DNA of 64,000 nt from Prorocentrum cordatum. Taxonomy: Eukaryota. The notes beneath the pieces were generated by a model that searched no databases, was not told where the DNA came from, and saw nothing but the letters and a program-made list of their open reading frames with translations. Below, piece by piece: positions 43,560 to 64,000 of the stretch (within the stretch, counting starts at the first letter, position 1; every line of letters begins with the position of its first letter). Position numbers and translations under genes: made by a program. The DNA lies in NCBI GenBank assembly GCA_963575745.1, contig CAUYUJ010000148.1:434001-498000 (forward strand), written 5' to 3'.

Positions 43560-44916
43560 GAGCCCACTGTGGCGAGCATATGGTTGTTCGAGACTCCCGC
43601 TCGAGACCTCCTCGAAATTCGGGCACCACGGGCCCAAACGTGACGACAGTTGGACAATTTGGATGACCCGCTCGGATTCGGACATGAAAGTGGGGTCCCC
43701 ATGGGGAGATGGTTTCCGCTCGAGACCTCCTTGCGATTCAGTCAACAACGAAGTCACCGCTCGAGACTCCCTCAATGTTCAAGCATCAGGAACCCCACAA
43801 CAACGAAGGTTGTTCGAGTTTTAGATGACCCGCCCAGATCCTCACATGAAGGCGGGCACTCCATGGGTGCCAAAAGGAGGGGGCACCCGCTCGACTTCCT
43901 CGCGGCTTCATCACTGACGGGGCTCCCGGCCGAAGCTTCCCCCAGATTCAGGCCTGAGGAGCCCAGACGCGAGGACAATTGCAGGGTTTGGATGACCCGT
44001 TCGGATTCGCACATGGAGGTGGGTACCCCAAAGGTCGAACAAGGGGCTCCCGCTCGAGATTTCCTCGCGATTCACTCACAGACGAAGCTACCGCCCGATA
44101 CGTTTGAGGATAGCCAGTCTGCACAATGAGGATGAACATGATAACGATGCTGATGATGAGGAAGATGGTCATGGCGATGATGGGGCGGAACAAAGGAGGA
44201 GGAGGAGGAGGAGGAGGAGGAGGAGGAGGAGGAGGAGGGGGATGAGGGGTGGGTGCCTCCGCGGAGCATCCCGACAACACAAGAATCCAACTCATGATTT
44301 GGGGAAAACCTAAACTTTCGGAGGTCGGCGCGGGTTTCTTTGAATATGCGCGCCAAAAGCCATACGCCGATCCAAAAAATCCGCGCAGATCTCCGAACAT
44401 CGCTTGTCATGCCAACTATTTTTCCCAAAAATCCAAAGTAGGGTTCTTGTTGTCTCTGCACACGCCGCGCAGGATCTCACCCCCCCCTTTCCTCTCTCCC
44501 TCTCTCTCTCTCCCTCTCTCTCCTTCTCGCACACTCACCATCATCACCATTAGCATCACCATCAATCACCATCATCGTCATCACACGCACACACTCATCA
44601 TCATCATTACCATCATCATCACCATCAACCATCATCACCGCCATCACTACTCATCATCACAATCCTTCACCACTACTCATCATCATATTCCTCATCATCA
44701 GCATCGTCAGCATCATCACCACTCGATCACCCACTCACTCACTCAATTACTCACTCATCCTCAGAAGGCTTCGGAAGCAGTGGTCCTCCGACGGTAGGAC
44801 CGCCGCCACTCTCAACATCATCGTCACCATCTCCATCATAATCTCTCTACCACCCACTCATTGGCCATCATGATCATCATCAGCATCATCATCACTCATT
44901 CATCACACACACACAC

Positions 44917-44953
<37 letters not shown>

Positions 44954-46330
44954 CGTCATCGTCATCATCATCATCATCATCATCATCATCAGCATCAGCA
45001 TCAGCATCAGCATCAGCATCATCATCATCATCATTCACTCACTCATCACTTCGTCATCACTCACTCCCTGGCTTGAATATGGAGGTAGTATCAGGCGGGA
45101 GCCTCGTCTGTGAGTGAATTGTGAGGAAGTCTCAGGCGGGAGCCCCTCCCTATGGGGCCCGCACCTCACGTGTTTAATCCCAGGCGGGTCATCCGAAACG
45201 TGCAACTGTCGTCATTTATGGGCCCCTGTGGCGTGAATCTGATGGAAATCCGCCGATCCAGCGTGTGAGTTCCAAGGAGTCTCAGCTACAGTCTCGAGGC
45301 TGAGCCTCAGCCTCTGGGGGGGTTGCCGGGGTGGCTCTGCCGGGGAAGGGGGGATGGGGGGGGGGGGGGGTGCGAGTTTCCGGCGGATGCGGGGTGTTTG
45401 GCGATTTTACAAAGGGGCCCTCTGTAGATGCGCTCAAGTCGTTGATTTCAACTGGTTTTTCCAATGTTTTTGGGGTTGTCGTTTTTGTTCTGCTTCCCGA
45501 CGCTCCAAGACGGCCCCCAAGACCGTTCGAAGACGGCCCAGGAGGCCCCCAGACAGTCCCAAGACGGCCCAAGAGGGCCCCAAGGCGGCCCAAGAGCCGC
45601 CCAAGACGGCCCAAGAGGCCCCCAAGACGGCCCCAAGAGGACCCAAAAGAGGGACGAAAAGCGGAACAAATCTAGCCTTCCAGCCCACGAGGCCCCCAGG
45701 AGGCCCCAAGAGCCCCCAAGAGGGCCCCCTAAAGACCCCAAGAAGCCTCCACGACGCCCTGACAGGCTCCTGTGCGAGTGTCTGAATGTGGTGCGTGTCT
45801 GCGAATGTCTGTGCGTGCTAGTGTCTCGCGTGCGCCTAGTGTGTCTCTGTATGCGTGTTTGCCGTATGTGCATTTGGTGGCGTGCATGTGTATCCGAGCG
45901 ACCCGGATCGGCGGCACTGGCCGAAATCCACTACAATATGAAGCGGGAGCCTCGTCTGTGAATCAATTGCGACGAAGTCTCAGGCGGGAAGCCTCTCCCT
46001 ATGGGGCCCGCACCTCACGTGTTTAATCCCAGGCGGGTCATCCGAAACGTGCAACTGTCGTCATTTATGGGCCCCTGTGGCGTGAACGTGATGGAAATAT
46101 GAAGCGGGAGCCTCGTCTGTGAGTGAATTGCGACGAAGTCTCAGGCGGTTAGCCTCTCCCTATGGGGCCCGCTCCTCATGTTTTTAATCCGAGGCGGGTC
46201 ATCCGAAACGTGTAACCGTCGTCACTGTTGGCCTCCGGAGGGCTTGAATAACGAGGATGTATCAGGCGGGAGCCTCGTCTGTGAGTGACTCGCGAGGAAG
46301 TCACAGGCGGGAACCCGCCGGTCTGTCCCC
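43560..46330. repeat. ~165-bp satellite family: diverged copies at 43560-44110 are inverted relative to conserved copies at 45080-45250 and 45935-46330
   Basis: gcgggagcctcgtctgtgagtgaattgcga.gaagtctcaggcggg...ggcgggtcatccgaaacgtg; reverse complement ggatgacccg...cccgctcgaga at 43660, 43823, 43990. Confidence 0.8.
44535..45065. repeat. (CAT)n-derived microsatellite
   Basis: Direct inspection. Confidence 0.95.
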
Positions 46331-46451
46331 GCGGGAGTCCCCGCGCCCAGCAAGCTCGAAGCATGCGAGCTGGAGCTGAAACGCAGGAGGAGGAAGAGGA
46401 GGAGGAGGAGGAGGAGGACGAGGAACAGGAATTGAGGAGGACGACGGCGGC

Positions 46452-46730
46452 CGGGCGCAGGGGGAAACACTTGCGTCCGGGCCGGGGGTGGTAACCCATC
46501 CTCGGCCGAAGCGGCGGCCCGGCGCAGGGGGGAACCCTTGCGTCCGGACCGGGGGTGGTAAGCCATCCTCGGCCAAATCGGGGGCAGGGGTAACCCCTTG
46601 TCTCCAGGACGCCGGTGGTAACCCATCGGCAGCCGAATCGGGCGCAGGGGTAGCCCCTTGCGTCCGGGCCGGGGGTGGTGACCCATCCTCGGCCGAATCG
46701 GGGGCAGGGGTAACCCCTTGTCTCCGGGCT
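46452..46730. repeat. 60-bp tandem repeat, ~4.5 copies
   Basis: ggcgcaggggtaaccccttgcgtccgggccgggggtggtaacccatcctcggccgaatcg. Confidence 0.9.
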
Positions 46731-46734
46731 GGCT

Positions 46735-47170
46735 GGCTGGACGACGGGTCGTACAACTACGCGGAGCCGCCGACGGAGGAGATCCAGCACGCCATCAGGG
46801 TCTTCTCTCAGATCCCCTGCGTCGTCGAGCTGAAGGGCACAAAGCGCCTCGAACCGGGGGACCCTTTGATCGCGTTCTCGGGCTGCACGCGCGAAGGCAA
46901 GCGCTTCCCACCAGAGGTCTGGTCTGGCTGGGAGAAGACGTTGGCCTCTGACAACCGCGGCGTCCTGGACCCGCGGCACCAGCACGAGAATTTCCGGCTC
47001 GGCTACGGCATGGGCATCTACTGGGAGACGCTGGCGAGGTGGATCAACACGCGCGCTCGTCGCGACGCGCGGCGCCTCGGCGTCCCCCTCGTTTTCCTGC
47101 AGGCCGTAGACGAGTGCGGCACGATTCAAGGCGACCCAGACGCAGGCTGGCGCCTCCTGAACGTCCCGAC
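46735..47170 (+). pseudogene. PIF1-family (Helitron-type) helicase internal fragment
   Basis: VVELKGTKRLEPGDPLIAFSGCTREG resembles the PIF1 L....R..D..F...L..R.G segment; RARRDARRLGVPLVFLQAVD...LLNVP; bounded by satellites; no Walker A in window. Confidence 0.55.
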
Positions 47171-47555
47171 TGGCTTGATTCAGGGCGGGGCTTTCGGACT
47201 CAACCGACTCACCCTGTTTTTGCATCATCGTCATCATCATCGTCATCATCGTCGTCATGACATTCATCATCGTCCGCGTCATCACCATCATCATCACCAT
47301 CTCCTCATCATCGTCATCATCATGATATCCATCCTCATCTCCTCGTCATCGTCATCATCGTGTAGTGATGATGATGATTAAATCAAGACCCGCATGACGA
47401 TGATGGCGGCGTGAACATGTTGATGCTGACGACGATGATGATGACGATGATGATGAAGCCGATGATTGCGATGATGATGGCGATGAAAATGATGATGCTG
47501 ATGACGATGAGGACGACGATAACCTTCTTTCGGACTGCGCGGGCCGTGCTGAGTA

Positions 47556-50500
47556 CTAATCGGAAAGCCCCACAGCCTCCGTGGAAGCGGGCCACCGCAT
47601 TTCGTCAAGCACCTCCGTGAGGTCGGGCAGCGCCACGGGGGCCCGTGCCAGGTGATCGGCGACGACGTGGTTCACGACGTTGAAGAACTCCTTCGGGCCA
47701 GGCGCGGCGTCGATCCTGCGCGCCCTGAACTCCCGAAAGACGTCGGAGCGGATCATGACGGCGATCTGCAGCCTGCTGTCGCCCACGCGCCGTTGCAGCT
47801 CGCGGTGGGTCGCGAAACAGCCCCGGCAGTCCGCGGAGGCGTGGCGGTGCACGTTGTGCTCGAGGGAAGACAGGGTGCCCATGTAGATGGACCCGAGCTT
47901 TTGCTCGAGGGCGACGACCCTTCCGCAGGAGGCTGTGCTCGAGGGTGGCGCCCCATCATGTGCTCCCAGGACCCCTGGGATCCTCGCGTGCACGGAGCGC
48001 GCCCCGAAAATCGTCACGGCCGCGCGCAACAGGGAGCATCCGCCATCTGTGTGCCAACCATCGTCCCGCGCGCCTGGTTGCACGAGCTGGATCGATGCGT
48101 GCGCGAACGCGTTGTCGGCGAAGTGCTCTGTCATGATGGGCTTTCCGTTCTGCTCGACGATGGCAGGCGGCGCGCCGTCGGCTTTGACAGCCTCGCGCAT
48201 TTTGTCTCCCAGCTGTTGCAGCCACGGGCGCATCTTCTTCCGCAGCGCTCGCGCGAAGGCGGCCGTGTGGGGCGAGGGGGTGATCTGCAAATTCTCGCCC
48301 TTGTTGAGGCTGCGGCACTCCGGGGGGCTTTCGTCGTCCACGATGCCTGCGACCTCTGTTTTCAAGCCCTTTGCCGCCTCGTCGCCTCGGGCGCATTTGG
48401 CGACGGTTGCCCCCGTGTCCAGGCGCTCCTCGGCCAAGTTCTGCCAGCACGGGTCTCTCTGCAAGAAGCGGGGCAAGTCTGGGTCCAGCTCCGCCTCCGC
48501 TATCGTGCCCGTGCCGTTTTTTCCCTGCGCCATGGAGATGCGCACGACGAGCTGGGCGCCAGCCGGCTGCAGGAAGCGACGAGCCCTTAGACGACTGATT
48601 GTCGCTCTGGCGCCAGGGTGCCAAAGCAGGCAGCTCTCGGCGGCCTTCAACAAGTCTGGGGGGGCAGTCTGCAAGTTCGTCAACGGGCCAGCGTCCTCGG
48701 CCGTCGAGTGCCTTCGCTGTTTCAGCCTTTAGCCAATCCTCGCCCGACCGCTTGAACCACTTCTCAAAGAAAGGCAGGTTGTCCAGCCACGGGGCGGGTT
48801 CCTGGTCCTCGTAATTGTAGAAGTCTCCCGACCCTGGCTCCTTGCCTGGGATCCCCAAGACCTCCCTGCAGAAAACCACGAAGTCTTTCGGGTGCCCCCC
48901 TGGATGCCCGAGCGCGCCGCAAGGCTCTGGTTGGAACAACACCTTGCGCGTGTACAACTCCGCCATCAGGCACCCGATGGACCACGTGTCCAGGTCCTCT
49001 GAGTAGCGCTGGTTCCCCAAGAAAACGTCTACCGCTCTGTAAGCGGGCGTGCGTACTCCGAGGTCATCGCAGGTCGGGCTGTAGCGCAGTTTCTTCTTCA
49101 ACCTGCCGTGGGGATCCGCCATCTCCACACAGCCGAGGTCGGCGAGCACCACCTGCGGAGAGGGGCGGATGGAGGAGAGGGGAGCGACGGCGACTGAGCT
49201 CCCCCTGGAGGGAAGGGCGGGATAGAGGGCACGACGACGGCATCTCGGGGGAAGGGTGGAACCTCCCTTGTTAGAACTCGGTGTGAGACCTAACATGAAG
49301 GCTAGTGAGATAAGCTGAGCTCTGACCTCGTCTATGAGGGCGTCGTCGGAGCTCTAACATGCTATGTTAGAGCTTCCATGGGAGCTCTAACACGCTTTGT
49401 TAGAGCTCCATCGGAGCTCTCACATGCTATGTTAGAGCTCCCTGGGGAGATCTGACATGCTAGGTTAGAGCTCCCAGGGAGCTCTAACATGGCATGCTAG
49501 AGCTGCCTGGGAGCTCTAACATAGCATGTTAGAGCTCCCTGGGAGCTCTAACATGGTATCACGTGCCATGTTAGAGCTCCCAGGGAGCTCTAACATACTA
49601 TGTTAGAGCTCCATGTGAGCCCTGACAACTCGGGATCTTAGTCGAAGGAACGACGATGATGACGAGGATGACGACGACGACGACGAGGATGACGAGGATG
49701 ACGATGATGACGAGGACGACGAGGACGAGGACGAGGAAGACGACGACGAGGACGACGAGGATGACGAGGATGACGAGGACGACGAGGACGACGGCGACGA
49801 GGACGAGGAGGACGACGACGAGGACGACGAGGACGACGAGGACGGCGAGGACGACGAGGACGACGAGGACGAGGAGGACGACAAGGAGGAGGACGACGAC
49901 GACGACGGCGACAACGACGGCGACGACGACGTCGACGACGAGCGCCTCGAAGGAACTCGGGATCTGCCAGTCGAACTGCAGCTTGCTCTTCGGGCACGGC
50001 GCGACGGGATCCCATTCGCCAAGCTCACAGCAGCCGCGCGTCTGCGGCGATCCTCGCATCAGGATGTTTGCGGGCTTGGTGTCGCAGTGAATGAGGCCCC
50101 TGTCGCGCATGGACTGGAGCCCTTCGAGAACGCTGTTCAGGACGTGGCGCGCCCCTGTGTGCGTGCAGGAGGACTTCTTGGGGAATTGGCGGGCATCGAT
50201 CTCGAACAACTCGTGCACGAGGCCGATGTGCTCCGTCCATTTCCAATCTATCCTTGGTACTGACTGTTGCAGTTCTCGGTGCGCTTTCTTCGGGACTGTT
50301 GCAGCTCCTGGGCGCAACCTCCTGAAAAGGCCCACGTCGAGTAAGCGAACGAGACGCGGGCGCGTGCCCACAGCGCCGTGGCGCGTGACCTCATCCAGAG
50401 CCCCTCCGACGGCATCCGCATTGAACCCCTTCTGCGCATCGCTGGGGTCGCCTCGCAGCATCCCGATCGCAAGGCCAGTCTTGTCGCCCCGTCGCGTGCC

Positions 50501-51163
50501 CAAGTAGACCTTGCCGAAAGAGCCCTGACCGAGCTCCCCTCCTCCCCGCTGCACGTCGTACTCGAGCGGCAGGTCCTCGCACTTGTCATTCTGTTTGTTC
50601 TGGTGCGCGTGCCCGACCGCGTCGAGCTTCAGTGCAAGTAGATTCACGCGACCCTCGTCGTGGGACACCGCTCTCGGACCAGCAGACCCGCGACGAGCAG
50701 CTGCCGGCGGCGTAGGCTCCGATGCCCCGTCCGCGGCGGGAGCGAGCACCTTCCCCAGCGCGTCCTCTAGGGTTTCTCCTGCGACACCGTGGCCCTCGGC
50801 GACAGCTGGCTCATCTTCTGCAGCGTCAGCTGTTCCAGCCCATTTCGCGCACCCTGGCACCCCCGCAGGCTTGCTCACATAGTCTTTCCAGTTGGCGCCC
50901 AGCGCAATCTTGAGGAGCCGCGCGCCGGTGTCATGCGGAACTGGCTTTGGCCACGTCAACACACATTTGTTCTTCGTTAACTTCTCCAGCGTCACGTTTT
51001 CGGTCGGGGCCCCCTTTGCCACCCTGGCCATGCTATTGCTGCAGGTATCCCTCAGCTTCTTGTTGATCTTGTCGCTGTTCGACCCGTCACCCTGCAAGTA
51101 ACAGCCCCACTTATAGAAGAGAACCTTGTTCCTGTTGCGACCGCTGCCGCCCGAGGCAGCCAT
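47556..51163 (-). pseudogene. Ser/Thr protein kinase (CMGC-like) fused to C-terminal AlkB-like 2OG-Fe(II) dioxygenase; two exons (51163-49946, 49152-47556); one +1 frameshift in a C7 run at ~48658-48664
   Basis: Kinase: ELGQGSFGKVY, AI(G)ML with catalytic Lys lost, HCDTKPANIL, LADLG, TPAYRAVDVFLG, DTWSIGCLMAEL, CLLWHPGAR. Dioxygenase: GWHTDG (HxD), AVTIFGARSV, GSIYMG..LEHNV, QIAVMIR. Confidence 0.8.
49153..49945 (-). other. GC-AG spliceosomal intron (793 bp, phase 0) containing (GAC)n and the palindromic satellite
   Basis: TTCGAG|GCGCTC...ccctctccgcag|GTGGTG; removal joins IPSSFE to VVLADLG in frame and restores kinase subdomain spacing. Confidence 0.85.
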
Positions 51164-51731
51164 CGCCGCGGAGGCCCGCTAACGGCAGTGTCGTCCTTGC
51201 GGGCCCGCTAAGTTGCAAGGAACCGAGACGCCTGCGGGCCCCTGCTCCGTCCTCCTCCCCCCCCTGCGGCCGCTCTTCGGAGCGTTGCTTCCCGTGTCTC
51301 CCCTACCCTGCTGCACCCCCATCCTGGCCCGCCCCTACAGAGCGCCGCAAGGATGCAAGGGCCTTGGCGGCACGGCATCTGTTGTTTATCCAGCCCCCCA
51401 GCGTCGGAACGGAAAACGTAGGATGCAAGGGTACCCTTTGGAAAAGTAAACATCCTGACTCTGCGCCTTGCCTGCGCCGTGGGCCGAGTGCGACGGATGG
51501 CGACGAAGGGATGACGGAGGACTGTGTTCCTATCTGTACGCAAGGTGCCGTGCACTGCACAGGCCAGAATGTGGCGCGAGCCCCATTACGAGAACGGAGA
51601 TGACGCCGCCAGCGCGCGACTGTTGCAGTCCAAAAACAAACAAGTGGCAGCTCCACGGGAACAAAAGCGCGCGGGCTGGCTCCTGCGTCGGAGCTGTCGA
51701 ATTATGTTGCAGCCTGTGCTCAAGCCTGCGC

Positions 51732-54700
51732 TCAGCCTGTCTTCGGCTTCTTCTTCTTCGAGGCCGAGGAGTCGTCTGAGGACGAGGGGTCTGAGATCGA
51801 GGACGCGTCGGCGTCGCGCTTCTTACCCTTATTGCCCTTCTTCTTTTCATCATCCTTGTCCTTCTGCTTATTATCATTATTGTCCTTATTATTGTCCTCC
51901 TTCTTGCCCTCCTTCTTGCTGTCGCCCTTCTTCCCATCCTTCGGGTCCTCCTTCAGGCCCTCCTTTGTCAGGCGCAACTGCACAGAGCGTGCAAGCAGGT
52001 CCTCGTTCACGAACACAACGGCGCTGCTCCCGAGCATGACCTCGACGGCGCGCTCCACGAGAAACGCCTTGAGCACCTTCGCGTGGTGGTCGTCGAAAGT
52101 CAAGGCCAACACACTGCGCCCGCTCTTGATGCAGCCGTGCATGCCTGCGCCGCCCGCAGGCGTGCCGAAGTACACCCACCTGGGCTTCCCCGCCTCGTGG
52201 CAGAGCTCCTTGAGGAGCTCGGTGTCGCTGTCGCGCGGGAACCACGGCACCTCCGTTCCCGTGAGCTGGCGGTAGAGCTTCCGCTTCTTCACGGCCGCAG
52301 TCACGAGGGCCTTCTCGGGGCGGACGGCTGTTGCAGCTTCGTCGCGCGCCTCGGCGCCACAATCAGCGCCCTCGCCCTCCTGGAGAGGGTGGCAGTACCC
52401 CAGCTTCTCTCGCTCCTCGGCCCCCACCTCGGTGGCGCACTGGCCGACCATGCTGGCCAAGCTGGCCCCCCCGAACCTGCTTGGGCACGAGGGCGTGGCT
52501 CTTCTGCGGCAGGACAGGCACGTTCCTCGCCACTTCGTTGAAGAAGGGGCTGCCCGCGTCCACGAACTGCCTGATATTTGCTATTTGCGTCGGCTTCCTC
52601 CCCTTGTAGCAGAGCATCATGACCTCGTGCGAGCGCGAGTTCGCCAGGCCTCGCTGCCTCTGGAAGTGGCCGTACTGCTGCATCTGCTTCGTGTTGTAGG
52701 CGAGGTGGCACGTGACCGTGCGGAACTTGTTTGCGGCGAGGATCTTCTGCATATTCGGGAGGTTCGACTGCGCGCGGCCCGTCAGCACCCACAGCACGTC
52801 CCGTCCACCGACCATCAGCGGTTCCAGGGACTTCAGGTAGTGTGTGAAATCCAACTCGTCCAGCGCGGGCTCACGGTGCGTGAGGCCTTGCCCCTCGAAG
52901 ACGCAGCACAACTTCGCATTCTTGACATCGTAGAAGCCCATCGCTGATGCATTATCTGTGAGGTTCTGGTATAGGCGTGTCTTAGTAACCGAAACGTTGA
53001 TATCCATGGCGCTGCCCTCCGCCGTGATCATGACGACCCGCGTATCCAGCTGGCTAGAGCACTGCTGCTCGCACAGCGCCTTGAAAATATTCACGCCGCT
53101 CGGGGAGACGTCGATCTTCTTCTTGTCCTCGGAGGCCGCCCCCGCTGTTCCAGCGCCGCCCGCTGTTGCAGCACCGACCGTGTCGCTGTCCGCAGGCTTT
53201 TGCTCTGACGGTGCCTGGGGGTTTCCCACGAGGGAGTCGTGCGCGATTTGGAACTTCTCGAAGAACCTCTTGTTCACTCGCACGCTCCTGTGGAACTTGT
53301 CCATGTTGTAGCGCTCGGCGCGCGGCTGAGTGAGGGCGCCAGAGATATCCTGCTTGTAGAAGTCCTGGCCTATGTCGAGGAAGCGTTTCATCGCCAGGCG
53401 CAGCGCCTCGGTCGGCAGTGACGGCACCCAGGTCGGGTCCTTGTCAGGCCCCTCAGCCTTCTCGAAGAACTTGAGCGGCGAGTCGAGGTATTGCCTCGCC
53501 ATGACAATGACTTTTCTCTCGGCGGCGTTCTCCGGTGCGTCTGTTGTTTCAGTGCTGTTGCAGCCAGTGCTCCCTTTGAACAAGTCTGGGCACTGTTTCA
53601 GAAAGTTCGCCGCGTACTTCTTCGCCCACAAGATCTCGCCCACTGCCTGGCCGATGGTGGAGGCGCTGGACGGGTCCTCCACGCTCTTCCGCCACATCCG
53701 CGTGTACAGGCTTTCCAAGACGTACCCCAGCGAGGTAGCGCCCGTCTTCGCGATGATCGTCCCAAGCTGCGTGGGCCTGTCCAGCTCGCCCCCAACGGTT
53801 CGCGGCGGCACCCAAAAGCAGCAATGCCCCCGGGCACTTTTCGAGAGCGAGCCAGTTGACCATGTGCGCCTGGCCGGCCCCCAGGCTGGGGCAGTGCAAA
53901 AGTCCCCACTATATGTTTCTCTCCAACCACGCCTGCACCTTCTCTGCCGAGGGGTTCCCGCCACCTGGCCCGCCACTCTTCAAGATGTCCGCCGCACGTG
54001 CCACCATGCGCATGAGGTTCTGGTTCTCGGCCCCGAGGAAATCGCGCAGGCGCTCGTTGCGGGATCTCTGGTTGACAGACCACGGGAACTTGTTCTCCTC
54101 GACCTCCTCAGCCGCGCGCCCCGGGATCAGCGCGAAATCGAAGGGCCAATCCAGAATCAAGTCCTCCACCGCGTCTACGGCCTGCCTGTTGCCTTCCTCT
54201 GTCGCCCAGTAGTAGGCTTGCCAGACAGCGTTGACCACGACGTCACTGCCCAAACGCTTGAACTTGCCGATGTCGGGCACAGCGGTCTGGTTCACGTTGG
54301 TGATCATGATGGGGATCTCGAACCCTTTCTCAACCTGCTTCGGGATGTTCCAACGCCTGCCACCCTTGACCTGGCTTAGCGTCTCCACGATGCGCCGCTG
54401 TGGGTTACCCTGGGCTGTGCACTCGACGTCGCCAGCGCCCTCAAGAGAGTCGTTCGCTGTTTCAGCCGCGTCGTCCGTCGGCACGTTCCGCATGAACATG
54501 TCCGCAGCCACGTTCTCCACCTTGCCCACCGTGATATTCTCCTCCAGGAAACTGTTGTCGATGGGCGCCGTATACGCCAGGTTCAGATAGACATTCCTGC
54601 GCTCGCCCTTCTCGTTACACTCTTCGATGATCCTTGGCGAGCTTCTCCTGCAATGGAGTTCTCTCCTTGCTGTCCTTCTTCGAGATCTTCTTCGACTGGT

Positions 54701-54860
54701 CCTCCTGCGACTTGTCTGGCTTCTCCCTCTTCGCCTGCGCGGCCCTCTCGGCGACGCGCTTCGGAATGGTCTTGAGAAGCCGTTTGAAGTCAGTCTCGAT
54801 GAGGGGGAAAACCTTGTCGGCCCAGAAGTCCTTGAACGGCTGCGCCGCGAAGCCGCTCAT
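51732..54860 (-). pseudogene. ~1000-aa protein: ParB-like N-terminal region and HTH, fused to a beta-class N6A/N4C DNA methyltransferase-like domain; frameshifts at ~54632, ~53785, ~52470 and in-frame TAG at 53909-53911
   Basis: Abutting ORF segments join into one frame. C-terminal WFPRD..ELLKEL..RWVYFGTPAGGAGMHGCIKSGRSVLALTFD parallels beta-class motifs X-I-II; SHEVMMLCYKG parallels hE.il.f.K; FYDVKN at the motif IV position. N-terminal FEIPIMIT..GKFKRLG..WSVNQR parallels the ParB/Srx layout. Confidence 0.6.
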
Positions 54861-55214
54861 CGCGCTCAGGCGGGCTGGTTCAGCTGCGGGCTGGCCGTTC
54901 CACCTCGCGCGCCTGTTGCAGGTCGGGCTGGAGCCGTGGTGGGAATGGAATTGGGCAATGATGGAAGAAGAGGGGCCGTTGTAGCCGATGGAACGTCCAG
55001 AGGGCGGATAGGAAGCATAGCGAAAATAGCCGCAACCAATTCTAGACGAACTCACGGATGTCGGAAGTCGCCCATTCCCTCGAAGCAATGCGAAGATTAA
55101 TGCATTTTCAGCGAGCGAGGGCGCCAAGAGCCTGTCGAGTTCTCCCCAGATGGCCTACCAGCTCTTGATGGGTGGGCCCAGAGATTTTGCAAGACCCCAA
55201 CGGCACCAAGAAAT

Positions 55215-55394
55215 TCTAACTACCCTAAGGGCCTCAAGAGGAGATCCCAGAAATTCTATCTCCCCACAGGGCCTCAAGAGAGATTGCCAGAAATTCCTCG
55301 CCCCTCAGGGCGTCAAGAGGAGATCCCAATCTTCAACGCACTCATTTTTTGAGTCCTAGTAGATCCAGAACCCATGAATCTGTTATTCTTTCGA
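55215..55394. repeat. 180-bp direct repeat, copy 1 (three internal ~38-bp subunits)
   Basis: Aligns end to end with 62595-62773 with scattered mismatches. Confidence 0.95.
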
Positions 55395-55924
55395 GATTCG
55401 CTGCCAGGCCGAAGGTTTCGACTGACTGCGCTAGCCGCTAGAACAGAGAACAGCTACAGCGCGCCCCCCCTCCCCCCCCGCCCTCGCGGCGGACAGCGTC
55501 GGATAATTCATGTACTCGGGGGGGGGGCCCTGGAGCCATGGGGCGTTGATCCGATCGGCATAAGCCCGACACTTGCGCAAACGTCCAGTGGTGCCAGTGG
55601 GGGGGTGGGGGGGGGGCGCGCGCGCGCTGCGGGGCGGGGGATGAGACGGCGCGCATGCTGCAGCTCGCACGGCCTCGCATGGAGCGCGCGCGTGGCATCG
55701 GGCCGACGGACCGAAAGAAGCAGCCGCGGGGGCGGCGTCCTGCAGGGCACAGAATGCAGATGAGGCCTAAGGATTAAGGGCGAGTCGGGTCGGGTCGTCG
55801 TCGCGTCGTCGTCGTCGTCGGTCGGTCGTCAAAATCTCTGATCATATCGCCTCGCCCCCATCTCCCCCCCCTCCCCCTTCCCCCATCTACTCCAACGCGC
55901 GGCGCGTGGCGGGCCCTCACCACG

Positions 55925-56767
55925 CTAGCAGCCCGCAAAATCGCGGTTAGTTTTGGGGTGGTGGCCGACGCGCATGTGAAGAAGGTTGCGCCTGCCATAG
56001 TGATCACTGCGGATCCCTGAACAGGGCGCGCAGAGCTTCCTGGAACATACACGCTCAGAGAAGCCGCCGCATACGGCGCAGATGTCAACGCTGCGATAGC
56101 GGGCCATCACGCGGCTGCTGTGGTACCCGAGCGCGCCAGCCGCGAGGGGCAAGATCCGGCGGAAGTGCGGTGCGATCCACGGCGCAGTGGCTGGCCAGCC
56201 GAAGTCGTTGGCATCAGACCCCACGGGCACCTCCATGGCTTGCCCCGCTGGTGCCGCTGGAGGCAGCCCAGGCTGCCCAGGCTGCACAGCGACAGGAGGA
56301 GGCTGCCCAGCGGCAGACACAGGAAGTGCGGCCCCTGCGCCACCCGGAGCTGCAGCGGCGCCCGCAGGGCCTGCGGTCGCAGCGCCACCACCACCAGCAG
56401 CTGGCACATGAACCGCATGCTGGAACACGGCGGCGGCCCCCGGGGCGCGCTGGTCGTCGCCGCCGCCGCCCACCACGACTCCATCTCCATTGATGGTCAC
56501 ACCGCCCACCACGACTCCATCTCCATTGATGGTCACACGAAGCTGGAGCTGGACGTGAATCGTCGTCGACGGCCCAGATGCTGCCATCGCGGCCATCGCG
56601 GCGAGCGTCGACGCCGCGTCGACGCCTGAGTCCGAGGCGGGGGGGGGGGTCGCCTGCTCAGGCTGAGGAGGAGTACAGCCGAAACACTGGACCTTCGCAC
56701 TGCAGACGGCTGAGGCTGAGGCAGCGACGCCGACGGACGGTGACGACGACGACGGGTCACGGGCCAT
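55925..56767 (-). CDS. Low-complexity protein with a C-terminal H-CxxC-C Zn-binding-like domain
   Basis: YHSSRVMARYRSVDICAVCGGFSERVCSRKLCAPCSG...RNLLHMRVGHHP. Confidence 0.45.
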   Translation of the reverse strand: MARDPSSSSPSVGVAASASAVCSAKVQCFGCTPPQPEQATPPPASDSGVDAASTLAAMAAMAASGPSTTIHVQLQLRVTINGDGVVVGGVTINGDGVVVGGGGDDQRAPGAAAVFQHAVHVPAAGGGGAATAGPAGAAAAPGGAGAALPVSAAGQPPPVAVQPGQPGLPPAAPAGQAMEVPVGSDANDFGWPATAPWIAPHFRRILPLAAGALGYHSSRVMARYRSVDICAVCGGFSERVCSRKLCAPCSGIRSDHYGRRNLLHMRVGHHPKTNRDFAGC

Positions 56768-56909
56768 GGGCCACCGGCCACGGGGGAAACCGTCGGACCG
56801 TCGGGGGGCGCCGCACGATGAATCATCTGCGAGGGCCCTCCGTCGGGAGGCCCCTCGACCACTCGGCCCTCCCGACGGGAGTCGACAGCCAGGGCCCGAG
56901 AATCCGATC

Positions 56910-58098
56910 GTATGTTAGAGCTCCAATGGAGCTCTAACATCGCATGTTAGATTATGTTAGAGCCCCCTGGGAGCTCTAACATCGCATGTTAGAGCTCCGT
57001 GGGAGCTCTGAGGCGGGGGCGGCGGCGGGTAGGTTAGAGCTTCCATGTTAGAGTTCCCTGGAAGCTCTAAAATACCGTGCCCCAACGGAGCTTTAACATA
57101 GCATGTTAGAGCTCAGTGGGAGCTCCCTGGGAGCTCTAACATGGTATGTTCGAGCTCCGTGGGAGCTCTAACATGGCTTGTTAGAGCTCCAACGGAGCTC
57201 TAACATAGAATGTTCGAGTATGTTAGAGCTCCCTGGGAGCTTTAACGTGGTATGTGAGAGTTCCGTGGGAGCTCTAACATGGCATGTTAGAGCTCCCAGG
57301 GAGTTCTAACATGGTATGTTAGCATTGAGCTCTAACATGGGATGTTAGAGATCCCTTGGAGCTCTTTCATGACATGTTGGATTATGTTAGAGCTCCGTGG
57401 GAGCTCTGAGGCGGCGGCGGCGGCGGCGGGTAGGTTAGAGCTCCCAGGGAGCTCTAACATGCGATGTTAGAACTCCCATGTTAGAGCTCCCTGGGAGCTC
57501 TAACATACCGAGCTCCAGCGGAGCTTTAACATCTCATGTTAGAGCTCCGTGAGAGCTCCATGGGAGCTCTAACATGTTATGTTAGAGCTCCGTGGGAGCT
57601 CTAACATGCTCTAACATGCTATGTTAGAGCTCCCAGGGAGCTCTGACATAGCATGTTAGAGCTCCAACAGAGCTCTAACATAGCATGTTCGAGTATGTTA
57701 GAGCTCCCTGGGAGCTCTAACATCGCATGTTAGATTATGTTAGAGCTCCCTGGGAGCTCTAACGGGTATGTTAGAGCTCCGTGGGAGCTCTGAGGCGGCG
57801 GCGGCGGCGGCGGGTAGGTTAGAGCTACCAGGGAGCTCTAACATAGCATGTTAGAGCTCCCAGGGAGCTTTAACATACCGAGCTCCAACGGAGCTTTAAC
57901 ATAGCATGTTAGAGCTCAGTGGGAGCTCCCTGGGAGCTCTAACATGGTATGTTAGAGCTCCGTGGGAGCTCTAACATGGCTTGTTAGAGCTCAACTGAGC
58001 TCTAACATAGCATGTTCGAGTATGTTAGAGCTCCCTGGGAGCTCTAACATGGTATGTTAGAGCTCCGTGGGAGCTCTAACATGGCATGTTAGAGCTCC
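56910..58098. repeat. Palindromic 32-bp satellite ATGTTAGAGCTC-N5-GAGCTCTAACAT-N3; further blocks at ~49330-49620, 60045-61040, 62335-62592, 63838-64000
   Basis: Alternating atgttagagctc and its reverse complement gagctctaacat; higher-order marker gaggcggcggcgggtaggttagag at ~57010, 57408, 57792, 60171, 60412. Confidence 0.95.
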
Positions 58099-58218
58099 CG
58101 GGGTGTTTTTTTTTTTCCCCCCCAACCCTCCTTGGTTGGGTATTCGTTTTGAATAGAGCAGTGTGGTCGCGTCCCTCCTCCCTCCCTTCCTCCCTCCCTG
58201 CCTCTTCCTGTCTTGCCT

Positions 58219-59835
58219 GCGGGGGGCTGCGATCTGTGAAACTGTCGCCATTTTCGAGGCCTGCTGGGGGGCCCAGCACAGCGAGGGCCACGGGCAGATT
58301 CAAATTAGACTCGCAATCCCTGACTCGCCTGTGGGGTCGCCATTTTCGAGGCCGCTGGCTTCAAATTAGACCTCGCCATCCCTGGGGGGCTGCGATCTGT
58401 GAAACTGTCGCCACTTTCGAGGCCTGCTGGGGGGCCCAGCACAGTGAGGGCCACGCGCAGATTCAAATTAGACCTCGCCATCCCTGGGGGGGCTGCGATC
58501 TGTGAAACTGTCGCCATTTTCGAGGCCTGCTGGGGGGCCCAGCACAGTGAGGGCCACGCGCGGATTCAAATTAGACCTCGCCATCCCTGGGGGGCTGCGA
58601 TCTGTGAAACTGTCGCCATTTTCGAGGCCTGCTGGGGGGCCCAGCACAGTGAGGGCCACGGGCAGATTCAAATTAGACCTCGCCATCCCTGGGGGGCTGC
58701 GATCTGTGAAACTGTCGCCATTTTCGAGGCCTGCTGGGGGGCCCAGCACAGTGAGGGCCACGGGCGGATTCAAATTAGACCTCGCCATCCCTGGGGGGCT
58801 GCGATCTGTGAAACTGTCGCCATTTTCGAGGCCTGCTGGGGGGCCCAGCACAGTGAGGGCCACGGCGGATTCAAATTAGACCTCGCCATCCCTGGGGGGC
58901 TGCGATCTGTGAAACTGTCGCCATTTTCGAGGCCTGCTGGGGGGCCCAGCACAGTGAGGGCCACGGCGGATTCAAATTAGACCTCGCCATCCCTGGGGGG
59001 CTGCGATCTGTGAATGTACAGTGAGGGCGACGCGCGGATTCAAATTAAACCTCGCCATCCCTGGGGGGCTGCGATCTGTGAAACTGTCGCAATTTCCGAG
59101 GCCTGCTGGGGGGCCCAGCACAGTGAGGGCCACGGGCAGATTCCTCTGAGACCTCGCCATCCCCGGGGGGGCTGCGATCTGAAACTGTCGCCATTTTCGA
59201 GGCCTGCCGGGGGGCCCAGCACAGTGAGGGCCACGGGCAGATTCAAATGAGACCTCGCCAACCCTGTGGGGGTGCGATCTGTGAAACTGTCGCCGCTTTC
59301 GAGGCCTGCTGGGGGGCCCAGCACAGTGACGCCACGGGCAGATTCGTCTGAAACCTCGCCATCCCTGGGGGGCTGCGATCTGTGAAACTGTCGCCATTTT
59401 CGAGGCCTGTTGGGGGGCCCAGCACAGTGAGGGCCACGCGCGGATTCAAACTAGGCCTCGCCATCTCTGGGGGGGCTGCGATCTGTGAAACTGTCGCCAC
59501 TTTCGAGGCCTGCTGGGGGGCCCTGCGCAGTTACGCCGCGGGCATATTCAAACGAGACCTCGCCATCCCTTGGGGGCTGCGATCTGCGAAACTGTCGCCA
59601 CTTTCGAGGCCTGCTGAGGGGCCCGGCGCAGTGACGCCACGGGCACACTCAAATGAGACCTCGCCATCCCCTGGAGGCTGCGACCTGTGAAACTGTCGCC
59701 ATTTTCGAGGCCTGCTGGGGGGCCCGGCACAGTGGCGCCACGCGCGGACCCAAATTAGACCTTGCCATCCCTGCGGGGCTGCGATCTGCGAAACTGTCGC
59801 CACTTTCGAAGCCTGGTGTGATCACCATTTTCGAA
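58219..59835. repeat. 102-bp tandem array, ~15 copies
   Basis: ggggctgcgatctgtgaaactgtcgccattttcgaggcctgctggggggcccagcacagtgagggccacg...ttcaaattagacctcgccatccct; near-identical on the left, diverged on the right. Confidence 0.97.
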
Positions 59836-61090
59836 GTGGCTAGGAGTGCCCAGGAATTGTAACTCATCAGCTTTATCAAGCCCTTTTCCTGTAGCCAGTG
59901 TCCTGCGAGTCTCCCGAATTCCGTCTGCAGACATATGCAACCCTCGCTCCGCCATCGCCCCCTTTATCAAGTATCCTAAACTATTTGCGCCCCGCTTTTG
60001 CGCAGGGGTTGGGTACGTCGCCAGGGTAATTTTCTTTCCACATGGCATGTTAGCCTTGAGCTCTAACATAGGATGTTAGAGATCCCGTGGAGCTCTATCA
60101 TGGCATGTTGGATCATGTTAGAGCCCCCTGGGAGCTCTAACATCGCATGTCAGAGCTCCGTGGGAGCTCTGAGGCGGCGGCGGCGGCGGGTAGGTTAGAG
60201 CTCCCTGGGAGCTCTAACGTGGTATGTTAGAGCTCCGTGGGAGCTCTAACATGGCTCTTTAGAGCTCCCAGGGAGTTCTAACATGGTATGTTAGCATTGA
60301 GCTCTAACGTAGGATGTTAGAGATCCCTTGGAGCTCTTTCATGGCATGTTGGATTATGTTAGAACTCCCTGGGAGCTCTAACATCGTATGTTAGAGCTCC
60401 GTGGGAGCTCTGAGGCGGCGGCGGCGGCGGCGGGTAGGTTAGAGCTACCAGGGAGCTCTAACATAGCATGTTAGAGCTCCCAGGGAGCTCTAACATGCTA
60501 TGTTAGAGCTCCCATGTTAGGAGCTCCCTGGGAGCTCTAACATACCGAGCTCCAACGGAGAGTTAACATATCATGTTAGAGTTCCGTGGGAGCTCCCTGG
60601 GGGCTCTAACATGGTAGGTTAGAGCTCCGTGGGAGCTCTAACATGCTCTAACATGCTATGTTAGAGCTCTCAGGGAGCTCGAACGTAGCATGTTAGAGCT
60701 CCAACAGAGCTCTAACATAGCATCTTCGAGTATGTTAGAGCTCCTTGGGAGCTCTAACATGGTACGTTAGGGCTCCGTGGGAGCTCTAACATGGCATGTT
60801 AGAGCTCCCAGGGAGTTCTAACATGGTATGTTAGCCTTGAGCTCTAACATAGGATGTTGTTAGAGATCCCTTGGAGCTCTATCATGGCATGCTAGAGCCC
60901 CCATGGGACTCTAACGTGCTATGTAAGAGCTCCTCGGGAGCTCCAACGTGTTATGCTAGATTTCGATGTGAGGGTTGTGAACTCTAACATGCTATGTTAG
61001 AGTTCGATGGAAGCTCTAGCATAGCATGTTAGAGCTCCCATCGAGCCGTCCCCCCCGCCGTCGTCGCCGTCGTCGTCGCCGTCGTCGGCA

Positions 61091-61122
<32 letters not shown>

Positions 61123-62164
61123 CCATCGGCCCCCCACCCCCCTCCTTTTAAGCGCGCATAAGTAAGGAAACATGTCCGAACACGGCCGCACTCTCGCACG
61201 CACCGCTGCCCTGTCCTCGACCTCGAGAACGACGGCTTCCCCCTTGAAAGGCGGGGGCATAGGGGTGGGGCCCTGTCTTCGACCACGGTGAAACATGGGG
61301 GTGGGGCCCTGTCTTCGACCACGGTGAGACATGAATAGGGCGCGGCCCTCCTTGCCCTCGCGGGGCGGCCTTGCCCCCTGGGAGGCGGTCGGGGATCAGG
61401 GGCGGAGGGGGCTCAGGGACTTCTGAATTAGAACTAGAAGGTGGGGGGGAGGAGGGGAAGGAGGAGGAGAAGGAGGAAGAGGAAGAGGAAGGCTTCACCG
61501 CCCTCCACGCACCGCCGACTTTCATCATGTATCCGCCCCGTGCTGGCGAGCTCTTCACTGAGAAAGTAACCCACTTTTGGCAATGTGAAGACACGCTTCT
61601 GGTAGAACTCCGTAATCAGTGCTATGGCCAGCGATTGAAGCACGGCCGCCGTGGCAACCAAATTGGCGCCGCTCCCAGCCGATATCCTCTTCGTCAACGC
61701 CTGAGGGGAGATCGATGTATGGCCGTGAGCGCGGTATACCGCGATTTCGCTCTTGCCGCGGAGGTTCAAGACCTTCGGGGCCATCGGAAAGAAAGGCGGC
61801 AGGACCTGGATAGAGCAAACTCGCCAACAACTTCTCGAGCCAAGCGAGACTACGTACAATCAGATGGCGCGGGCCAGGAAACTGGAAGACTCCAGAGCGG
61901 TTGTGGATACTTCAGGCCAGGGTCAGGATGAGCATTGGAAGAGCCTACTGGGGGGGGGGGGGGCCAAAGGATGAGCCAGCACAGGAAGGCCCCAACATAA
62001 TTGCGCGAGGCTGCTGCGAGAAGCCTGACGGGGACTGTGACAAGGGAATGTGGCGGCACGCCGCTGTGAGAAGACTTATACGACAACGCTACCCGCGTGA
62101 GAAGCTACTGCCGCAGGCAGCGGCCCGCGTGAGGTCACTCGGTCATCCTTCTTCGCATGGTGGC

Positions 62165-62300: not shown

Positions 62301-62594
62301 TATCTGGCATCTGTCCTGACATCTTCGAGCCCCCACGGAGCTCTAACATGCGATGGCCGAGCTCCCAGGGAGCTCTAACATGGCATGTTAGAGCTCCCAC
62401 GGAACTCTAACATACGATGTTAGAGCTCCCAGGGAGCTCTAACATAATCTAACATGCTATGTTAGAGCTCCCTTGGAGTTCTAACATGCGATGTTAGAGC
62501 CCCCAGGGAACTCCCACATCATCTAACATGCTATGACAGAGCTCCGTTGGAGCTCTAACATGTCATGTTACAGCTCCCTGGAGCTCTAACATCA

Positions 62595-62773
62595 TCTAAC
62601 CACCCGAAGGGCCTCAAGAGGAGATCCCAGCAATTCTATCTCCCCACAGGGCCTCAAGAGAGATTGCCGGAAATACCTCGCCCCTCAGGGCGTCAAGAGG
62701 AGATCCCAATCTTCAACACACTCATGTTCAGTCCTACGAGATGCAGAACCCCATAAATCGGTTATTCTTTCGA
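62595..62773. repeat. 180-bp direct repeat, copy 2
   Basis: Matches 55215-55394. Confidence 0.95.
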
Positions 62774-62875: not shown

Positions 62876-63664
62876 TCACTGGTCCTGCTGCTTGTCCTGC
62901 TGCTTGAGCTCCTCCACTTTCTGATCGAGCTCCTCGACTTTCTTCTGCAGGTCCTGGAGCGCCTGTCCCTGCGCCCGCAGGGTGTCCAGCATCTGATCCA
63001 TCTTCTCGGCCATGTTATGTGCAATAAGGTTTGGAGCAGTCGTGGTCAAGAGATTGAGCATCGAGGTGATAACGGTGGTTGGCCCGTCCTGCTGCTGCTG
63101 CTGCGTAAGCTTCTGCTGCCACTGCTGTGCTCCTGCTGTTGCAGCTCCTGCTGTTGCAGCTCCTGGTGACGCAGCTCTTGAGCTGTTCCAGCTTTTCCAG
63201 GTTCTCTCTCCTGCAGCTGTTCCAGCTTCTTGCTGATGGCCTTCACTTTGCCATTGCTCTCTGCTCTCTCTGCCCTTGAGCTTGGGCTTATTCGACGACC
63301 TCCAATCATCCGCTTCATCGTTTTTCCGCTCCAGGGCGTAGCTCGAGTGGAGCACCGCAGTGTTCATGATCTTAGAGCACCATGCGGCCTTCTCCTCATC
63401 AGAACCCTGTGGACAAGCATTATGCCACCAGAGATGCTTATTCTTTATATTCTTGGTGTGGTCCGCCGAAATCTGGTGCGTCGGGGCTGCCCATTTCTCG
63501 CGCGGCAAACAAAACCACCAGGGCTCCTTAGGTTCTCCACTCTTCTTCGAAACGTACTCGCGAACTTCTAGCCATGGCGCGTCAATGGGTCCAGTGTCAG
63601 GGTCCATGATGACGGTTTCTGGACATGGGCCATGCCTCCCTGCGCTGGCCCCCATTTCTGACAT
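62876..63664 (-). CDS. Protein with a U1/matrin-like C2H2 Zn-finger (one Cys replaced) and C-terminal coiled coil
   Basis: WWFCLPREKWAAPTHQISADHTKN (C-x2-[C>R]...H-x5-H); heptad tail LQDLQKKVEELDQKVEELKQQ; uninterrupted ORF. Confidence 0.55.
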   Translation of the reverse strand: MSEMGASAGRHGPCPETVIMDPDTGPIDAPWLEVREYVSKKSGEPKEPWWFCLPREKWAAPTHQISADHTKNIKNKHLWWHNACPQGSDEEKAAWCSKIMNTAVLHSSYALERKNDEADDWRSSNKPKLKGRESREQWQSEGHQQEAGTAAGERTWKSWNSSRAASPGAATAGAATAGAQQWQQKLTQQQQQDGPTTVITSMLNLLTTTAPNLIAHNMAEKMDQMLDTLRAQGQALQDLQKKVEELDQKVEELKQQDKQQDQ

Positions 63665-64000
63665 GGCAGCCTGCAGGCGCTGCAAGAAATGCCTTGGGCC
63701 GAGGTGCCTGCGCTACAGGAAAGCTGGGTGATCTGATAAATGGAGCCAAGAGGGGTCCAGGAGGCTATTTTGTGGGTTCCCGAGGGGCAGGGCGATTTGA
63801 AGGATCCCCCTTCTTTGATCGATTTCCCTCACATGGCAGAGCTCCCAGGGAGCTCTAACATGGCATGTTAGAGTTCCCAGGGAGCTCTAACATGGCATGT
63901 TAAAGCTTCAGGGAGGTCGAACAAGCTATGTTAGATCCCCCTGGGAGCTCTAACATAGGACGATCGAGCTCCCGTGGGGCTCTAACATGCTATGTTAGAG

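Follow-up and report, generated by a model that had tools for sequence, protein, structure and literature searches.

The question raised by this locus is whether a protein kinase is joined directly to an Fe(II)-dependent oxygenase in a single gene and, if it is, what such an enzyme would act on. The window, by which we mean the whole stretch of 64,000 nucleotides that was analysed (Prorocentrum cordatum, GenBank assembly GCA_963575745.1, contig CAUYUJ010000148.1, positions 434,001 to 498,000 of the forward strand), carries on its minus strand a kinase frame and an oxygenase frame. An initial annotation, made from the letters alone, had proposed that removal of one C from a run of seven fuses the C-lobe of a eukaryotic protein kinase to a 2-oxoglutarate (2OG)-Fe(II) dioxygenase. 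The fusion is borne out because relatives carry both parts in a single open reading frame (ORF). We are almost certain of the architecture, namely, a small N-terminal domain, a linker, a complete CDK-like kinase and an Fe(II) oxygenase, and of the pseudogene status of the copy in the window.

The fusion and the state of the window copy

All the elements of the proposed join, namely, ELADCPP of kinase subdomain X, the C7 run, DLLKAAESCLLWHPGAR, the HxD motif, the distal His, and QIAVMIR, were located on the minus strand where they had been placed, and the kinase frame (VVLADLG ... ELADCPP) and the oxygenase frame (DLLKAAESCLLWHPGAR onward) meet in the seven-C run. Relatives were collected by a search of 1.84 billion cluster representatives, which gave 331 matches at E<=0.001, and the site counts given below for the oxygenase domain use the best 150 of these 331. 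The family therefore comprises at least 331 clusters at 50% identity, most representatives being fragments, with members as distant as 27% identity. The one-base frameshift that had been suggested at the C7 run is confirmed by the closest metagenome relative, L012, whose junction is in frame (DCPEGLVQLVQKCLVWYP against DCP(P)DLLKAAESCLLWHP in the window) and of equal length after correction of the frame, and by a contig from another sequencing run that spans 48595-48953 in 358 letters without a mismatch and with 1 gap somewhere in that stretch. In the remaining close metagenome loci shown, the junction is in frame too, with an equal residue count. The best longer relative, P0001 (898 aa, one ORF, E 5e-63, 40% identity over 95% of the domain), matches both sides of the join in one chain, so that in the relatives the two domains are not separate genes. 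Since P0001 and the close loci cross the junction in this way, sequence comparison marks the fusion as real and the frameshift as peculiar to the window copy, where it would be either a lesion or an assembly slip. The broken frame at the join is the one observation that would suit an artefact, that is, two separate genes or an assembly accident. Such an artefact is hardly credible because dozens of independent relatives have the fusion in a single ORF, and it is already refuted by the continuous fusion ORFs of P0001, P0020, P0021, L012, L014, L015, L021, L022, and L023.

Although the kinase C-lobe is fused as the initial annotation described, it is not a C-lobe only, because the N-lobe and the catalytic loop were found in an upstream exon (Table 1). 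The exon 1 ORF matches Pkinase in Pfam (E 6e-10) and closes with PSSFE, after which comes GC, and the AG that precedes VVLADLG is 793 nt further on. When spliced, PSSFE-VVLADLG of the window aligns with PASFQ-VVLADIG of P0001, and the predicted intact product would be ~940 aa long. The N-terminal domain has a beta-alpha-beta look by eye, and a PDB sequence search with it gave no credible match (titin at E 0.01, over short stretches). An intron at the same codon, between F[EQ] and VVxxD[LI]G and with GT-AG ends, is present in L002, L008, and L011, which are all three of the loci that have both exons and the intron, and it is seen in relatives at 35-55% identity. An AG directly before the DxG strand was found in 15/17 loci, most of which are without the upstream exon, so that some of these AGs are perhaps coding; L031 and L038 are intronless at that position.

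Table 1. Positions in the window of the kinase-oxygenase gene (gene C), its parts, and the neighbouring gene B
Feature	Position	Strand	Remarks
Gene C, complete	exon 1 51163-49946, intron 49945-49153, exon 2 49152-47556	minus	
Exon 1	49946..51163	minus	406 codons, ATG at 51163; collinear with P0001 and L041
Small N-terminal alpha/beta domain	~51145-50873	minus	start of exon 1; then acidic linker
Kinase G-loop GQGSFG	50513-50530	minus	exon 1
Kinase beta-3 LAIGML	50456-50473	minus	exon 1
Beta-3 Gly (GGG) replacing ATP-binding Lys	50462..50464	minus	by family comparison; L041 has FAIKML
Kinase alpha-C LDEV	50387-50398	minus	exon 1
Kinase catalytic loop HCDTKPAN	50066-50089	minus	exon 1
24-nt in-frame deletion	50028..50029	minus	against contigs of four other sequencing runs
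Intron, 793 nt	49153..49945	minus	GC donor and AG acceptor; TCG-type triplet repeat and 32-nt GAGCTCTAAC satellite inside
Exon 2, kinase C-lobe	48658..49152	minus	DLG, TPAYRAVD, DTWSIGC, subdomain X; Pkinase E 5e-7
C7 run with one extra base	48658..48664	minus	G7 on the plus strand
Rest of exon 2: kinase subdomain XI followed by the Fe(II)-oxygenase double-stranded beta-helix	47556..48657	minus	stop at 47556
HxD iron ligands	48045..48053	minus	His 48051-48053, Asp 48045-48047
Arg of T-x-x-G-x-R turn, strand after HxD	47997..47999	minus	by family conservation
Distal His iron ligand	47856..47858	minus	by family conservation
Last strand QIAVMIR	47748..47768	minus	Gln 47766-47768, Arg 47748-47750
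Gene B	51732..54860	minus	~1040 codons; 568 nt upstream of gene C, same strand

The VAIK Lys is not intact in the window copy, in which this beta-3 residue is Gly (LAIGML), and alignment of the relatives shows that the Lys is kept in 15/16 family members. The 24 letters missing at 50028 are present in the contigs of 4/4 runs, and in genes B and C together 52/421 family-conserved columns deviate in the window. Because the beta-3 Lys is lost here yet kept in the family, and with the 24-nt deletion and further substitutions, the window copy reads as a dead pseudogene. As a separate observation, when the window is compared with the contigs over 46000-56500, C/G in the window against T/A is commoner than the reverse (transitions in the four runs 135 vs 76, 147 vs 99, 142 vs 81, and 150 vs 113), and the conserved-residue losses comprise 19 AT-to-GC and 12 GC-to-AT changes. 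This C/G excess may be due to T-to-C drift in repeats rich in 5-hydroxymethyluracil (5hmU), the polarity being assumed.

Kinase and oxygenase go together in most of the family. Among representatives in which 40 or more residues precede the oxygenase domain, 44/51 match the kinase profile, four of the other 7 have kinase C-terminal remnants by eye, and the long proteins picked for scanning match Pkinase in 21/21 cases. In P0115 and L029 the N-domain is joined directly to the oxygenase and there is no kinase. Metagenome contigs, when scanned, yielded 41 loci of the family, and the 11 clusters that were looked up are from ENA, JGI or Logan assemblies. Exact short peptide patterns or single-protein searches, which are weak negatives, found zero relatives in viral contigs, GTDB genomes, and annotated phages. 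A search with alignment A1 through 7999 longer candidate proteins (848-2420 aa) found none, and this too is weak evidence.

The oxygenase pocket and the kinase

The searches of the oxygenase domain sequence against Pfam, PHROGs, and PDB gave no match, and it is the fold that identifies the domain. The model of 334 residues has a predicted local distance difference test (pLDDT) score of 89.5 and a predicted template modelling (pTM) score of 0.90, and the 50 fold matches listed are nearly all 2OG-type oxygenases. The best of them is ALKBH3 (Z 12.2, root-mean-square deviation (rmsd) 3.9, 188 aligned), and below it are 3h8o, an AlkB-family DNA-lesion complex (Z 12.0, rmsd 3.5, 189 aligned), two prolyl hydroxylases of the PHD type (Z 11.1, rmsd 3.8, 186 aligned, and Z 11.0, rmsd 3.1, 170 aligned), and FTO and ALKBH5 (both Z 10.8). 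NgTET1 (Z 9.8, rmsd 3.4, 177 aligned) comes below the AlkB and PHD rows, and JmjC-type chains are low in both fold lists. AlkB-family chains top the Foldseek lists of PDB and of viral models, and a structure-atlas cluster with PF13532 on 43% of its members scores 0.92. With AlkB chains as with PHD chains, the structural alignment covers the N-terminal extension. From this model the C-terminal domain is confidently predicted to be an Fe/2OG-type double-stranded beta-helix.

The iron ligands are conserved in the family (HxD His 98/106, Asp 99/105, distal His 96/98), and the terminal Arg of the last strand is invariant (101/101). The initial annotation had described an AlkB-like pattern with Gln in place of the first Arg. 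The pattern and the Gln are there, but the substitution is not peculiar to the window copy and is instead a family trait, the first position of R-x5-R being Gln in 46, Lys in 13, His in 12, Leu in 10, Glu in 8, and Arg in only 5 of 98 members. Thus, in the register set by motif anchors against RYNLTFR of E. coli AlkB, the family does not have the R-x5-R of AlkB. Nor does it have the N-x-Y that precedes HxD in AlkB, since Q-x-M/L is found there (Gln 96/101, Met 71/105, Leu 18/105). In AlkB, the Tyr of N-x-Y and the first Arg of R-x5-R hold the C5 carboxylate of 2OG. Because both are lacking family-wide, 2OG must be anchored otherwise or another co-substrate must be used. Two further conserved elements are a T-x-x-G-x-R turn after HxD (Thr 97/105, Gly 104/105, Arg 98/103) and a basic R-x-x-R-A-R tail after the last Arg (Arg 77/100, 77/97, and 83/97). 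The Arg of the turn sits where JmjC enzymes have their 2OG-binding Lys (G-x-K of strand IV), and some AlkB-family proteins have an Arg at that position with a structural role. Our hypothesis from the alignment is that the conserved Thr and Arg of T-x-x-G-x-R are a JmjC-like replacement anchor for the co-substrate carboxylate, and they are to be regarded as candidates. Loss of the usual anchor has a precedent in CMD1, which, as passages of PMC7854593 describe, has no basic partner for the 2OG C5 carboxyl, uses vitamin C instead, and still catalyses. We consider it very probable that the family includes an active Fe oxygenase.

Searched against PDB sequences, the family kinase profile finds CDKs or CDK-like kinases in every one of its 60 best matches (CDK2, E 9e-68). 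In members that cover each site, the catalytic residues are conserved (beta-3 Lys as given above, alpha-C Glu 18/19, catalytic Asp 21/22, Asn 22/22, DxG Asp 29/30), and so is the CMGC P+1 signature (Thr 31/37, Arg 34/37), whereas the RD Arg is found in 0/22 members, which makes this a non-RD kinase. No PSTAIRE-like helix was seen in alignment A2, and a long variable insert follows the catalytic loop. Since the catalytic residues are conserved and both the RD Arg and a PSTAIRE-like helix are lacking, the family kinase is predicted to be an active, non-RD, probably cyclin-independent CDK-like Ser/Thr protein kinase.

Gene B, the substrate and the mode of spread

Gene B is interrupted at ~54634, 53784, and 52466 by one-base or eight-base indels relative to the contigs, and its 51 relatives in one search include none with an informative name. 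It consists of a helical N-part with a helix-turn-helix (HTH)-like unit and a C-terminal domain resembling beta-class amino-methyltransferases (FYDVKN ... WFPHDN ... GTPAGGAG), the GTPAGGAG, which resembles an S-adenosylmethionine loop, being conserved in the relatives near the C-terminus. The model of the relative P0176 is weak (pLDDT 60.8). Its residues 43-109 match HTH units, and the 11 structures closest to it in fold belong without exception to the beta-class DNA/RNA amino-methyltransferases, at Z 6.7-7.6 and thus under 8, with M.MboIIA at the top (Z 7.6, rmsd 4.4, 131 aligned). MT-A70 proteins lead in Foldseek, where the best E is 0.007, and in the structure atlas. By this model gene B is likened to a beta-class amino-methyltransferase. 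A ParB identity of the N-part is a pattern only, searches of PDB and Pfam having given no match. Contigs of 4/4 runs cover both gene B and the kinase-oxygenase gene, and none of them bridges the two.

The best reading overall, to which we give about an even chance, is that the family oxygenase oxidises bases as one member of a gene pair for DNA modification, and that this pair is spreading as a multi-copy cassette. In such a pair the oxygenase would bind Fe(II) through HxD...H, activate O2 with a 2-oxo-acid co-substrate, and oxidise a base in DNA (or RNA) that carries a methyl group or another modification, the target base being one written or marked by the methyltransferase-like protein of gene B. 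The co-substrate would most likely be held by the Thr and Arg conserved in the following strand pair and, less likely, would not be 2OG. The kinase would phosphorylate Ser/Thr-Pro sites without activation-loop control and would time or recruit the oxygenase, and it would be dispensable in some members. The gene pair would spread as a multi-copy cassette, leaving many neutrally decaying copies such as the one in the window. Modified bases are unusually abundant in dinoflagellate DNA. Phages have oxygenase-methyltransferase-ParB neighbourhoods, as parts of PMC13229309 and PMC4738411 describe, and according to part of PMC11572971, repeats in dinoflagellate DNA are marked and silenced by 5hmU, which TET/JBP homologues make. 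By analogy, the phage neighbourhoods and the silencing of repeats make a DNA-modification role plausible. A bolder version, which is quite a long shot, is that dinoflagellates have a spreading cassette of two genes by which a new DNA mark is written. In it a ParB/HTH-linked amino-methyltransferase variant would mark a base, this base would be turned into an undescribed hypermodified one by an AlkB-fold oxygenase that has a rebuilt pocket and, as in CMD1, a non-2OG co-substrate, and the fused cyclin-independent CDK-like kinase would link this to the cell cycle or disarm host silencing.

Several observations weigh against the base-oxidising cassette. By fold, AlkB and prolyl hydroxylases are effectively tied in this model. 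At the sequence level, 0/45 aligned members match the 2OG families of Pfam (PF13532 included) at E<=1, and the profile aligned to E. coli AlkB gave an hhalign probability of 0.2, the use of a single AlkB sequence making this a weak test. The register of the co-substrate residues comes from motif anchors and not from measured distances. On the side of gene B, there are the low scores given above, the absence of the (D/N/S)PP(Y/F/W) catalytic motif, FYDVKN standing at the matching strand, and the fact that gene B was found in none of the 41 family loci, but no more than 837 bases precede the gene start in any of these. No transposase, mobility or replication gene is present in the ORF lists of the window. 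In 44000-62000, where 1277 inverted pairs were listed, the 25 longest include no terminal repeats and fall in satellites and triplet runs. Finally, of the three points counted for a nucleic-acid substrate, namely, the fold matches of gene B, the basic R-x-x-R-A-R tail and a fusion of part of the oxygenase domain to a helix-hairpin-helix (HhH) ORF in L036, the last is seen in one locus among chimeric fragments and may be a rearrangement.

AlkB and prolyl hydroxylases are too close in fold score to decide between a base and a protein substrate, and it is gene B that tilts the choice toward nucleic acid; a nucleic-acid substrate for the family oxygenase is, by itself, an evenly balanced proposition. 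The domain could instead be a PHD- or JmjC-like protein hydroxylase or demethylase acting on the same substrate as the fused kinase, for example at Ser/Thr-Pro motifs, which would make it a two-mark enzyme with gene B being incidental or protein-acting. The near-equal PHD scores (Z 11.1 and 11.0) are in keeping with this. So is the CMGC P+1 signature, which, because it is kept, makes the fused enzyme a protein kinase, and the G-x-R turn and the PG..Y.G...H.V.H pattern may be reminiscent of JmjC enzymes. We hold this to be rather unlikely, however, because the 2OG-binding Arg of the PHD last strand is missing too, gene B resembles a nucleic-acid methyltransferase, and kinase-less members occur. 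Alternatively, the domain could be catalytically dead or not of the 2OG type, so that it would only bind, that is, read, a modified base or a metal, and its partner would be an inactive methyltransferase resembling METTL14. Consistent with this, both AlkB ligands of the C5 carboxylate are replaced according to the anchor alignment, gene B has no PPY/W, and the rows that head its Foldseek list are chain B, the inactive subunit, of the METTL3-METTL14 and MTA1-MTA9 complexes. Yet conservation of all three iron ligands and of the terminal Arg is 92-100% in a family that reaches down to 27% identity, and CMD1, as the passages of PMC7854593 have it, loses the C5 anchor and still catalyses, and a binding-only domain is therefore improbable.

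The mode of spread can be considered apart from the substrate. The flanks of the loci are simple-repeat and resemble those of the window, and a dinoflagellate spliced-leader match is present in 3/41 loci against 0.1 per shuffled round; in L002 a relic spliced leader (4/21 mismatches) begins 79 nt ahead of the ATG. The same relic search in the window gave a single match, which is at chance level. Relic spliced leaders mark retrogenes, and the leader motif was taken from the part of PMC5585692 that gives it. From the repeat flanks, the spliced-leader matches, and the GC donor we infer that the hosts are dinoflagellate-like marine protists. Codon-model omega for the oxygenase domain, with loci lacking a long open frame excluded, is 0.90 for 5 close loci, 0.69 for 4 close loci, 0.40 for 4 sequences including the window, and 0.22 for 11 deep lineages, and the medians of pairwise omega drop from 1.26 to 0.39 with distance (225 pairs, which are not independent). 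Near-neutral divergence of close copies together with purifying selection in deep lineages is typical of elements that shed dead copies and of pseudogene-rich host families. The genes could accordingly be ordinary dinoflagellate host genes amplified by retroposition and segmental duplication, with no mobile cassette and with the adjacency of B and C being local gene order. We give this somewhat less than an even chance, and it concerns the spread only, being compatible with either substrate. The conserved spliceosomal intron in relatives at 35-55% identity, the spliced-leader relic and matches, and the failure to find mobility genes, element ends or relatives in viral contigs all suit host genes. 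The near-neutral divergence among close copies with open frames, on the other hand, suits a turnover-prone element. Also on that side are variable downstream neighbours, intronless members (L031, L038) beside intron-bearing ones, and chimeric fragments (L028, L036, L039, L040, and L041), in which oxygenase-domain pieces are joined to unrelated sequence, the HhH ORF of L036 (204-1763; HHH_3 E 9e-8) being DNA-binding.

Some other features were noted in these loci and in the window. L036 has an exact spliced-leader copy further on, at 2447. An ORF common to L013 (1780-2760), L015 (2140-2230), and L040 (1-987) lies beside the oxygenase gene or fragment and has, by eye, an S24/S26-peptidase-like pattern (KSSGTSMWPLVHPHD…IGVGDIVFCQV). 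In the window, an exon-like fragment at 46725-47201 (plus strand; …GVPLVFLQAVDEC…) faces the kinase gene and is not part of the unit. Database searches with it were without a match, its pattern resembles the C-terminal half of a PIF1/Helitron-type helicase, and it is probably a separate element. Upstream of gene B there is a small Ala/Pro-rich ORF at 55925-56596 (minus strand) with a terminal Cys cluster (CAVC…CSRKLCAPC), partly covered by contigs of the same runs, and at 62876-63712 (minus strand) there is an ORF with a U1-type zinc-finger-like motif (WFCLPREKWA…HQISADHTKN), in which one Cys position is Arg, and a coiled-coil end. At ~10800 and upstream (minus strand), the ORF text …FPFGVSLMAQLMACSNGARTHIFPGSLSPLALPIFHMSYPQTRKSSGFSTG… resembles DUF3987/primase-helicase-like proteins. 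A 32-nt self-complementary satellite (GAGCTCTAAC unit) occupies 49346-49614, in the kinase intron, as well as 56911-58103, 60189-60960, 62320-62600, and 63838-64000, and a 102-nt tandem array is at 58360-59815.

Relation to known systems

The constituent folds are already known and it is the combination that is new to the literature searched. The kinase-oxygenase family is unannotated, and the fusion, the variant pocket, and the gene B neighbour were found in no open-access main text, although supplements, for example the architecture tables of PMC4738411, may include the fusion. A sequence-cryptic oxygenase family with a rebuilt pocket and a CDK-like kinase is a candidate for further base or protein chemistry in dinoflagellate genomes. 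The window copy, a pseudogene, is of little value itself, but intact family members are available for assay.

The best sequence matches of the kinase are in the CDK group of CMGC (CDK2, CDK3, and CDK5), with which it shares the G-loop, the Lys, the Glu, HxDxKPxN, DxG, and T-x-x-Y-R-x-P-E/D. It differs in being without a PSTAIRE-like helix, in being non-RD (22/22), and in its long insert and fused oxygenase. With the AlkB family (human ALKBH3, ALKBH2, and ALKBH5, E. coli AlkB, PF13532), which has the best fold scores, the oxygenase shares the double-stranded beta-helix with an N-terminal extension, HxD...H, the last Arg of R-x5-R, and a similarly spaced strand before HxD (12 residues vs 11). 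Unlike AlkB, it has no first Arg, no Tyr of N-x-Y and no detectable sequence match, and it has a short D-G-G-A-S loop after HxD, a basic C-terminal helix, and the CDK-like kinase. PHD/EGLN and other prolyl 4-hydroxylases are alike in HxD...H and in the tied fold score, whereas the family lacks an Arg at the start of the last strand and has an AlkB-like terminal Arg and the kinase fusion. CMD1 of Chlamydomonas, which makes 5-glyceryl-methylcytosine with vitamin C, is a precedent in having HxD...H without a C5 basic residue in the account given in those passages of PMC7854593. It is a TET homologue with a pocket-blocking Trp, whereas our family keeps small residues there and matches NgTET1 at the lower Z given above. 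Finally, the phage clusters of ParB, amino-methyltransferase and T-dioxygenase and the eukaryotic elements with TET/JBP or methyltransferases also have, in the parts of PMC13229309 and PMC4738411 that describe them (see also PMC12730594), an oxygenase beside an HTH-bearing amino-methyltransferase-like gene. Those neighbourhoods have TET/JBP-type oxygenases and P-loop kinases, whereas here there is an AlkB/PHD-like oxygenase with a variant pocket, a CDK-like kinase, and a spliced gene.

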